Shown one piece after another: positions 6,449 to 30,915 of a DNA stretch of 30,915 nt; position 1 is the stretch's first letter, and each line of letters begins with the position of its first letter. The notes under the pieces are model-generated. The model made no database searches, was not told where the DNA came from, and worked only from the letters and a program-made list of their open reading frames with translations. The position numbers and the translations under genes were made by a program. The DNA is taken from NCBI RefSeq assembly GCF_003334335.1, contig NZ_QOWQ01000048.1; one strand, given 5' to 3'. This DNA is from Escherichia coli. Its GTDB lineage: Bacteria; Pseudomonadota; Gammaproteobacteria; Enterobacterales; Enterobacteriaceae.

Positions 6449-6660
<212 letters not shown>

Positions 6661-30446: not shown

Positions 30447-30601
30447 AGATAGTCGAATGGTGGGGAAAAGTCACTCGAATTACGCCTAATGTGCAGGATG
30501 CGTCATTTTACGCCTAATTCCACCGACATAGAGTTGCTTGCACAGTAAGCTCTGACGATGTCATCAGGTTTACAAAGTGAAATTGAGGATGCCTGAATAG
30601 C

Positions 30602-30630
30602 AAAAAAGCGCCTTTAGGGCGCTTTTTTAC
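30602..30630 (-). terminator. Terminator hairpin at the end of the tRNA operon; bidirectional-looking
   Basis: AAAAAAGCGCC-ttta-GGGCGCTTTTTT. Confidence 0.6.
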
Positions 30631-30632
30631 AT

Positions 30633-30708
30633 TGGTGGGTCGTGCAGGATTCGAACCTGCGACCAATTGATTAAAAGTCAACTGCTCTACCAACTGAGCT
30701 AACGACCC
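30633..30708 (-). tRNA. lysQ: tRNA-Lys (anticodon UUU), with encoded CCA
   Basis: The reverse complement reads GGGTCGTTAGCTCAGTTGGTAGAGCAGTTGACTTTTAATCAATTGGTCGCAGGTTCGAATCCTGCACGACCCACCA. The lysQ name is assigned by position and is tentative. Confidence 0.93.
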
Positions 30709-30840
30709 CTTGCGGGATTATGCTGCCTTAATCATTCAGGATGGTGGGTCGTGCAGGATGACTCGACTTCGTCTCGCCCTTCGGGCCGTTGCTAACGCAA
30801 CGTTATCCTTCACGTTCTCTACCAGTAACCACCTTTAAAT

Positions 30841-30915
30841 TGGTGGGTCGTGCAGGATTCGAACCTGCGACCAATTGATTAAAAGTCAACTGCTCTACCA
30901 ACTGAGCTAACGACC
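30841..30915 (-). tRNA. lysZ: tRNA-Lys (UUU), second copy, missing its first 5' nucleotide at the window edge
   Basis: Identical to the 30633..30708 copy over 75 nt. The gene name is tentative. Confidence 0.9.

Follow-up and report, generated by a model that had tools for sequence, protein, structure and literature searches.

A short-form RtT-family element with a tRNA-Lys 3' end in the lysZ-lysQ spacer of Escherichia coli

The rttR, or rtT, RNA of the Escherichia coli tyrT operon was reportedly described in 1991, and the 178-bp tandem repeats distal to tyrT and tyrV are said, from work of 1978 and 1981, each to hold the last 19 nt of tRNA-Tyr. We could confirm the principle of these repeats in K-12, where the boundary of the unit falls in the T-loop and the unit ends in the 3' end of the tRNA. 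Two articles describe rtT RNA as being released from the transcripts of tyrT and other tRNA operons, and as possibly modulating responses to amino-acid limitation (PMC4986893, PMC2965389). The RtT core is conserved in Pasteurellaceae, and RtT RNAs have been detected on Northern blots in Actinobacillus (PMC4986893).

The spacer described here separates the tRNA-Lys genes at the lysZ and lysQ positions of the lysT operon, in a 30,915-nt stretch of an E. coli genome (RefSeq assembly GCF_003334335.1, contig NZ_QOWQ01000048.1) that is referred to below as the window. It contains an element that shares with the RtT RNA of the tyrT operon (rttR/rtT; RF00391) a homologous core, the same location downstream of a tRNA gene in the transcript, the same closing helix made from a copy of the tRNA 3' end (T stem and part of the acceptor stem) and the same ...CCA end. 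It differs in its length of 76 nt, being a short form without the P2/P3 region, in ending as tRNA-Lys rather than as tRNA-Tyr, and in lying between two tRNA genes instead of in a distal tandem array. Compared with the 178-bp repeats of tyrT and tyrV, the lysZ-lysQ spacer holds a single unit, and the sequence that follows the copy is unrelated to the sequence that follows the gene, so that simple tandem duplication does not describe it.

More distant likenesses can be drawn to other RNAs. The 3'ETS of leuZ, reportedly a tRNA-operon spacer RNA that acts as a sponge for small RNAs, is comparable in that the RtT element, too, is a part of a polycistronic tRNA transcript that is not itself tRNA and that the tRNA-processing nucleases could free. 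The 3'ETS is, however, unrelated to RtT in sequence and lacks a tRNA end copy. The tRNA-like domain of tmRNA and acceptor/T-arm minihelices resemble the element in that the T stem and the acceptor stem contribute their 3' strands to a helix that is followed by NCCA. In the RtT element, by contrast, helix P1 has 10 base pairs and the tail 8 nt, and the T-loop is replaced by a three-hairpin domain of ∼56 nt.

The lysZ-lysQ spacer and its RtT element

ARAGORN places two minus-strand tRNA-Lys(UUU) genes at the end of the window, at 30633–30708 and 30841–30916, the second being truncated by the window end. This upstream gene, whose first base lies outside the window and whose remainder occupies 30841–30915, is assigned to the lysZ position of the lysT operon by ARAGORN, by an Rfam tRNA match of 71 bits and by synteny with lysZ of K-12 W3110. 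The downstream gene (30633–30708) is assigned to the lysQ position by ARAGORN, Rfam and the K-12 annotation. Between them lies a 132-nt spacer (30709–30840). The next tRNA gene of the operon is found upstream; downstream are the intrinsic terminator of the operon, AUGUAAAAAAGCGCCCUAAAGGCGCUUUUUUGCUAU (30597–30632, minus strand, from comparison with K-12 and its annotation), and then nadA. Far from this operon, the window also holds an Rfam match to naRNA4/CssrE, a REP-derived nucleoid-associated RNA, at 6512–6582 on the minus strand (60.7 bits against a gathering threshold of 59.5).

The 18-mer TGGTGGGTCGTGCAGGAT has three exact plus-strand occurrences in the window, starting at 30633, 30742 and 30841; at up to three mismatches the chance expectation is 0.01 matches, and three matches were reached in none of 100 shuffles. 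The occurrence at 30742–30759 is an exact match to the final 18 nt, with the CCA, of the tRNA-Lys(UUU) gene on either side; its coordinates and identity are those given to it by an earlier, sequence-only reading of this DNA. In the orientation of the transcript (minus strand, from 30759 to 30742) its sequence is ATCCTGCACGACCCACCA, or AUCCUGCACGACCCACCA as RNA. It opens with the end of the T-loop, continues with the 3' strand of the T stem and that of the acceptor stem, and closes with the discriminator base and CCA. Positions 30750–30759 of this copy form the 3' strand of helix P1, and positions 30742–30749 the unpaired tail ACCCACCA.

A search of the whole window with the Rfam RtT model (RF00391) gives a match at 30742–30909, minus strand, whose 3' end is the 18-mer. 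Its score is 60.0 bits (gathering threshold 45; E = 1.6e-9), in an alignment that carries an insertion of 43 nt and has model positions 1 to ∼58 within the upstream tRNA gene, so that only the 3' ∼65 nt are convincingly homologous. On the strength of this match, of homology to the core of the tyrT rtT repeats and of the fold, we assign the stretch from the 5' strand of P1 through CCA (30742–30814, minus strand) to a short-form element of the RtT family. Its location, between two tRNA-Lys genes on the same strand and upstream of the operon terminator, is that of the family. So is its outer helix, formed by the copied tRNA 3' segment and followed by a tail ending in CCA, which is seen in the minimum free energy (MFE) fold, in the RNAalifold consensus and in covariation across tRNA types. 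The 18-mer thus forms the 3' end of a short-form element of the RtT family, an ordinary feature of a family that is already catalogued.

The sequence-only reading had named a conserved element of the operon's spacers as the finding that would count against a remnant or a scar, and this is what K-12 displays: RtT follows every tRNA-Lys of its lysT operon, in five copies. In K-12 W3110, lysT, lysW, lysY and lysZ are each followed by an RtT match that has the same 18-mer as its end, with scores of 54–60 bits, and a fifth, long-form copy lies past the lysQ terminator (46.7 bits), between two 54-bp direct repeats that each consist of the tRNA 3' end and terminator. Only this post-lysQ copy bears the PGAP label 'RtT sRNA'; the spacer copies are unannotated in RefSeq. 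The window lacks the fifth copy, which is present in K-12 and in many other strains, a difference of 155 bp. The K-12 tyrT operon has four RtT copies, which end in AATCCTTCCCCCACCACCA, the 3' end of tRNA-Tyr, and whose core aligns with the Lys copies as AACGTTGC-loop-GCAACGGCCCGAAGGGCGAG-hairpin-GAGTNATCC. In an alignment of the five Lys and four Tyr copies, the invariant blocks CG..GC.ACG.CCCG.AGGG.GA...GA.T.ATCCT are common to all, and the last 13–14 nt are specific to Lys or Tyr.

Other descriptions of the 18-mer fit less well. Neither ARAGORN nor the Rfam tRNA model makes a call in 30709–30840, where the match to tRNA-Lys is confined to the last 18 nt of the gene, so that a tRNA pseudogene is not indicated. 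A simple tandem duplication is not indicated either, the sequence after lysZ being ATTTAAAGG... and that after the copy TCCTGAATG...; duplication of a tRNA 3' end with its flank does fit the K-12 post-lysQ unit and the tyrV repeats. The sequence-only reading had taken the 18-mer for a possible remnant of a tRNA gene deletion or duplication and the sequence beside it for unrelated. The 18-mer is indeed tRNA-derived, but it is the end of a conserved element and not a stray remnant; likewise, the neighbouring sequence is unrelated to tRNA-Lys, but the Rfam match and the alignment with the tyrT copies identify it as the conserved core of the RtT family.

Fold and covariation of the element

When the element is folded in isolation, P1 encloses three hairpins, P4, P5 and P6, and the 8-nt 3' tail ACCCACCA is free in the MFE structure. 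The 5' strand of P1, CGUGAAGGAU (30805–30814, minus strand), lies directly 5' of the core and pairs with the first 10 nt of the tRNA end copy, with one A.G mismatch. P4 (30787–30802, minus strand; CGUUGC-GUUA-GCAACG) is near-invariant in 45 elements, with 98.6% of cells paired. P5 (30776–30786, minus strand; GCCC-GAA-GGGC) is the most conserved motif of the family and was part of our search pattern, and P6 (30765–30773, minus strand; GAC-GAA-GUC) is a variable hairpin with compensatory changes in four pairs. The 76-nt piece 30742–30817, which adds three bases 5' of P1, folds with a predicted energy of −28.5 kcal/mol (z = −3.46), and none of 200 shuffles was as stable. The Arg and Tyr forms have an analogous fold.

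The pairing partners in P1 change with the stable RNA gene upstream. In the Lys type, CGUGAAGGAU pairs with AUCCUGCACG; in the Tyr type, GGGGAAGGAU with AUCCUUCCCC; in the Arg type, GGGAGGAU with AUCCUCCC; in the Pro type, AGAGGAU with AUCCUCU; and in the 5S type, GGCAGUU with AACUGCC. The structure was tested on an alignment of 45 distinct elements, which were chosen with a filter on the tail and from whose long forms the P2/P3 segment had been cut beforehand, because MAFFT, given long and short forms at full length, misplaced the P1 5' strand of the short forms. In this alignment 91.3% of cells are paired in the proposed structure, compared with 31–46% in slid controls, and neither the observed pairing nor the covariation score was reached in any of 500 shuffles. 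Two-sided changes occur in four pairs of P1 and in four of P6. RNAalifold recovers P1, P4, P5 and P6 unaided; at the covarying pair that flanks P6 in its consensus, 39 elements have C-G and 6 have U-A.

Among the Lys, Tyr and Arg types, the P1 5' strand pairs best with the end of its own tRNA type, at 9.0–9.6 of 10 positions as against 6.6–8.3 across types. The change of the P1 5' strand with tRNA type has the character of compensatory covariation in the aligned sequences, one that rests on few independent events, corresponding to about four tRNA types; P4 and P5 hardly vary and are uninformative on covariation either way. No tRNA gene contains the P1 5' strand as one contiguous stretch, and copying or conversion from a tRNA gene therefore cannot maintain it. 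In the Lys type it reads like acceptor nucleotides 5–7 (CGU) fused to a Tyr-like T-stem 5' strand (GAAGG), and it is this Tyr-like GAAGG that gives rise to the single A.G mismatch. Such a composition hints that the Lys-type element may have descended from a Tyr-type element.

The surroundings of the element are also of interest for its fold. The proximal spacer, AUUUAAAGGUGGUUACUGGUAGAGAA (30815–30840, minus strand), is A/U-rich and follows directly on the CCA of the upstream tRNA. Its GGUGG is the complement of CCACC in the tail. That tail has 8 nt, compared with 4 nt in tRNA, and in the MFE fold of the full spacer it pairs with this upstream GGUGG, 30828–30833 and 30821–30823 being paired with the tail region; both features weigh against the reading as a tRNA-end mimic that is set out below. 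On the other side of the element lies the distal spacer, UCCUGAAUGAUUAAGGCAGCAUAAUCCCGCAAG (30709–30741, minus strand).

Distribution among genomes and E. coli strains

A scan with the core pattern GCRACGRCCCGWAGGGYGA, covering one genome per species and with tRNA neighbours assigned by ARAGORN, gave at least 120 loci; these and the further loci examined are numbered here with the prefix L. Among the matches listed, the core is found downstream of genes for tRNA-Lys(UUU), Tyr(GUA), Arg(ACG), Arg(CCG) and Pro(UGG), in Escherichia, Citrobacter, Enterobacter, Klebsiella, Pluralibacter, Phytobacter, Kosakonia, Erwinia, Pantoea, Brenneria, Gilliamella, Marinobacterium and others. At almost all of the loci listed, the last 16–19 nt of the same tRNA come after the core. 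Over all types, an element consists of the P4-P5-P6 core and a copy of the final 14–19 nt of the stable RNA gene directly before it; at the start of this end copy, 7–10 nt pair with an upstream segment to form P1, and the remaining ∼8 nt, ending in CCA, are unpaired. Long forms beside Pro, Arg(CCG) and Erwinia Lys genes score 82–101 bits with the RtT model. Long forms in other genomes keep pieces resembling the T-arm 5' half of the cognate tRNA, such as GCAGGTTCGA and AAGGTTCGA. Tandem arrays of RtT occur after tyrV and in Klebsiella, Pantoea and Superficieibacter.

The correspondence between the tail and the adjacent gene extends to individual substitutions. Changes in the acceptor stem of the adjacent tRNA are mirrored in the tail at L022 (Lys, ...ACGCCCCACCA) and at L026 and L102 (Tyr, ...CCCCCGCCACCA). 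At L102 (8622–9350, Enterobacteriaceae bacterium RIT691), two tRNA-Tyr genes of a single operon differ by one acceptor-stem base pair, having GGTGGGG/CCCCACC and GGCGGGG/CCCCGCC respectively, and both downstream RtT tails match the variant tRNA-Tyr gene to which they are adjacent and not the other tRNA-Tyr gene of the operon. Decayed or truncated tails also occur among the matches listed, for example at L006, L020, L021, L105 and L119. A role for the tail as a co-transcriptional placeholder, paired with the 5' acceptor strand of the downstream tRNA, was considered and rejected since the tail always matches the upstream RNA; it does so even where tRNA-Val, tRNA-Thr or no gene follows.

The core is not confined to tRNA neighbours. 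In the spacer of rRNA operons between 5S rRNA and a distal tRNA-Thr or tRNA-Asp, a P4-P5-P6 core ends in a copy of the 5S 3' end, ...AACTGCCAGGCAT, at L083 (297–437) and at L010, L063, L065, L066, L091, L092, L110 (in E. coli), L113 and L117. These 5S-linked elements carry the copy with a few flanking bases, and an upstream GGCAGTT complementary to the start of the copy; their scores lie below the Rfam threshold for RtT. Multicopy relatives of the core, consisting of GCGACGGCCCGAAGGGTGA, a hairpin and then TCATAAAAAA, were also observed away from tRNA genes, in Alcanivorax sp. 24 (L028–L042), Pectobacterium (L079, L080), Pseudomonas (L043, L057) and Brenneria (L098), with at least 18 copies in one Alcanivorax genome. 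They may link RtT cores to repeats of the REP/BIME kind, a connection that PMC2965389 proposes for E. coli. A separate observation concerns an IMG/VR contig (L126, ∼2060–2260, minus orientation) on which an RtT copy after the valY-lysV terminator is cut right after ATCC. Past the cut lie unrelated sequence, a serine-recombinase-like ORF and ORFs resembling phage tail fibres, an arrangement that may represent a rearrangement junction inside the tRNA-like end. The idea that a prophage uses the RtT tail as a secondary att site was dropped for this contig, there being no second att copy in 13 kb.

Within E. coli, the element is a unit of presence and absence. The unit comprises 99 bp (30742–30840), includes the proximal spacer and is bounded by the 18-bp direct repeat at 30742–30759 and 30841–30858. 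The comparison of this spacer across E. coli genomes, which the sequence-only reading had proposed, places the 18-mer as one arm of this direct repeat. The complete 132-nt spacer is found at 80% coverage or more in 1,996 of 5,426 complete E. coli genomes (∼37%). The empty lysZ-lysQ spacer is estimated by subtraction (4995 with the junction, less 1996 with the element) to occur in ∼3,000 genomes, or ∼55%, a figure that comes from a junction query that joins pieces, was checked against the spread of rows and is not a direct census. In E. coli AR_0013 (L132, 900–1700), the same operon has spacers of 35, 51, 48 and 33 nt, and all four RtT units are absent, each exactly from the CCA of the tRNA to the CCA of the copy, with 99 bp missing at the lysZ-lysQ site. 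E. coli CFSAN027350 (L133) lacks the lysZ-lysQ unit alone and keeps three spacer units and the post-lysQ unit; the spacer sites of the operon therefore vary independently. The spacer without RtT is 33 nt long in both strains, and the distal spacer is the only spacer sequence kept in such alleles.

The RtT unit is thus dispensable and polymorphic in E. coli: with the element absent from about half of the complete genomes, and all four units absent from AR_0013, any function must be non-essential. Orthologous lys spacers of Citrobacter, Pluralibacter, Enterobacter and Phytobacter carry RtT units, so that the empty alleles of E. coli would most simply be losses, produced by recombination or slippage between the 18-bp repeats. 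For the complete set of exact losses in AR_0013, serial slippage or allele replacement may be the route. E. coli plasmid records also contain tRNA-Lys with parts of the spacer region, in 11 places (for example NZ_CP098226.1, 50 kb).

Possible origin, processing and function

How might such elements have arisen, and what keeps them in place? We consider that the RtT element is probably a structured spacer RNA, co-transcribed with the lysT operon, whose 3' end mimics a tRNA end for processing. A different explanation, which we regard as unlikely, is that it is a neutral by-product of the dynamics of tRNA arrays: a degenerate pseudo-tRNA with an expanded T-loop, spread by unequal crossing-over and with a tail renewed by gene conversion, giving a functionless RNA. 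The number of copies does vary, in the arrays of tyrV, Klebsiella, Pantoea and Superficieibacter and in the 155-bp difference between the window and K-12; units are present or absent exactly, and independently at each lys spacer; long forms retain T-arm-like pieces of the cognate tRNA; some tails have decayed; and the mirrored tail substitutions are what gene conversion would produce. Conversion cannot, however, maintain the P1 5' strand, which nevertheless stays complementary to the type-specific tail. Compensatory changes in P6, the absence of any ARAGORN tRNA call in the spacer, and conservation of the core from Enterobacteriaceae to Erwinia, Gilliamella and Marinobacterium, and to Pasteurellaceae (PMC4986893), also speak against decay without function.

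Two further explanations turn on the direct repeat itself, which has the layout of attL and attR at tRNA genes. It would be a quite improbable outcome, in our judgement, for the element to be a selfish, non-autonomous repeat of stable-RNA 3' ends, mobilised in cis or in the manner of REP/BIME sequences, with the repeated end as its site of insertion and excision. That a gene, an element and a partial 3' copy starting in the T-loop follow one another as at an attachment site, that empty sites are exact, that one core occurs at unrelated loci with locus-specific ends each time, and that P4-P5-P6 relatives are multiplied off tRNA genes in Alcanivorax, Pectobacterium and Pseudomonas would all be accommodated, as would the assignment of rtT-like sequences of E. 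coli to BIMEs (PMC2965389). No gain event was observed, however, the E. coli empty sites looking like losses, and a target-site duplication of fixed size would not range over 14–19 nt as the repeat does. The element has no linked recombinase, and deletion between 18-bp repeats 99 bp apart needs no dedicated enzyme. Replication slippage is able to delete between short direct repeats without one. Repeats of a tRNA 3' end that begin in the T-loop are, for their part, said to be typical of the core sites of integrases, and the sequence-only reading had offered an att-type scar of a phage or island once integrated in tRNA-Lys as an explanation. The direct repeat with its start in the T-loop, and the 99-bp unit that is missing exactly at the repeat in other strains, would agree with such a scar, which we nevertheless hold to be extremely improbable and for which we find no support. 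The repeats are a mere 81 bp apart, and what separates them is the conserved RtT core rather than foreign DNA or an integrase gene, whereas attachment sites would enclose cargo. The arrangement recurs after every tRNA-Lys of the operon, five units in all, and after Tyr, Arg, Pro and 5S genes, and the helix formed with the repeat covaries, as a conserved RNA module would. The copies recovered in a scan of viral contigs adjoin tRNA-Lys or match the E. coli tyrT repeats and are read as host flank, and the apparent junction on the IMG/VR contig is without a second att copy in the 13 kb covered.

The structured spacer RNA that we favour can be placed within what is known of the operon. The lysT operon is transcribed as one precursor of ∼1100 nt, in which RNase P cuts the 5' end of each tRNA, and its tRNA-Lys precursors have long 3' trailers that are removed by RNase E, RNase II, PNPase and RNase T (PMC4176162). 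The RtT fold falls within such a trailer. Against a stable spacer RNA, the text of that Northern study of K-12, in which the lysZ-lysQ spacer was probed, describes large precursors alone, in RNase mutants, and is silent on any spacer RNA of the wild type (PMC4176162); no RNA product or phenotype has been reported for the lysZ-lysQ copy. Helix P1 is followed by a free tail that ends in CCA, and the element therefore ends in a helix and ...ACCA, like tRNA-Lys itself. We infer from this a possible course of processing. An RNase P cut at the downstream tRNA, together with an endonucleolytic cut in the A/U-rich stretch past the upstream CCA, would free the spacer RNA, with the proximal spacer as a conceivable entry site for RNase E. 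Exonucleases acting from the RNase P cut would then trim the 3' end and would stop at the helix and ...ACCA, as for tRNA. The outcome would be a discrete RtT RNA with a terminus of the tRNA type, such as is reported of the rtT RNA from the tyrT operon, and this RNA could be a by-product or a modulator, for instance of the stringent response.

A broader and more speculative proposal, to which we give limited credence, is that RtT elements form a class of stable-RNA 3'-end mimics, whose closing helix and tail co-evolve with the upstream RNA, be it Lys, Tyr, Arg, Pro or 5S, and which compete with the cognate RNA, or buffer it, so as to tune how it is processed or sensed. Such a mimic would present to the maturation and surveillance machinery the same terminus as the RNA upstream, and its candidate partners would include RNase T, RNase PH or RNase II, the CCA-adding enzyme, poly(A) polymerase, and RelA and the ribosome. 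If this is the case, the natural alleles of E. coli with and without RtT make it directly testable, as they differ only by the exact presence of the unit and are ready material for work on tRNA-Lys maturation, tRNA levels and responses to starvation.

Finally, the RtT copies are hot spots of small insertions and deletions in a tRNA operon, which matters for the assembly and annotation of such repeats. What these observations add to knowledge of RtT is a terminus and closing helix that track the neighbouring RNA, relatives linked to 5S rRNA, and natural alleles of presence and absence, each of which may serve as a lead to the function of the family.
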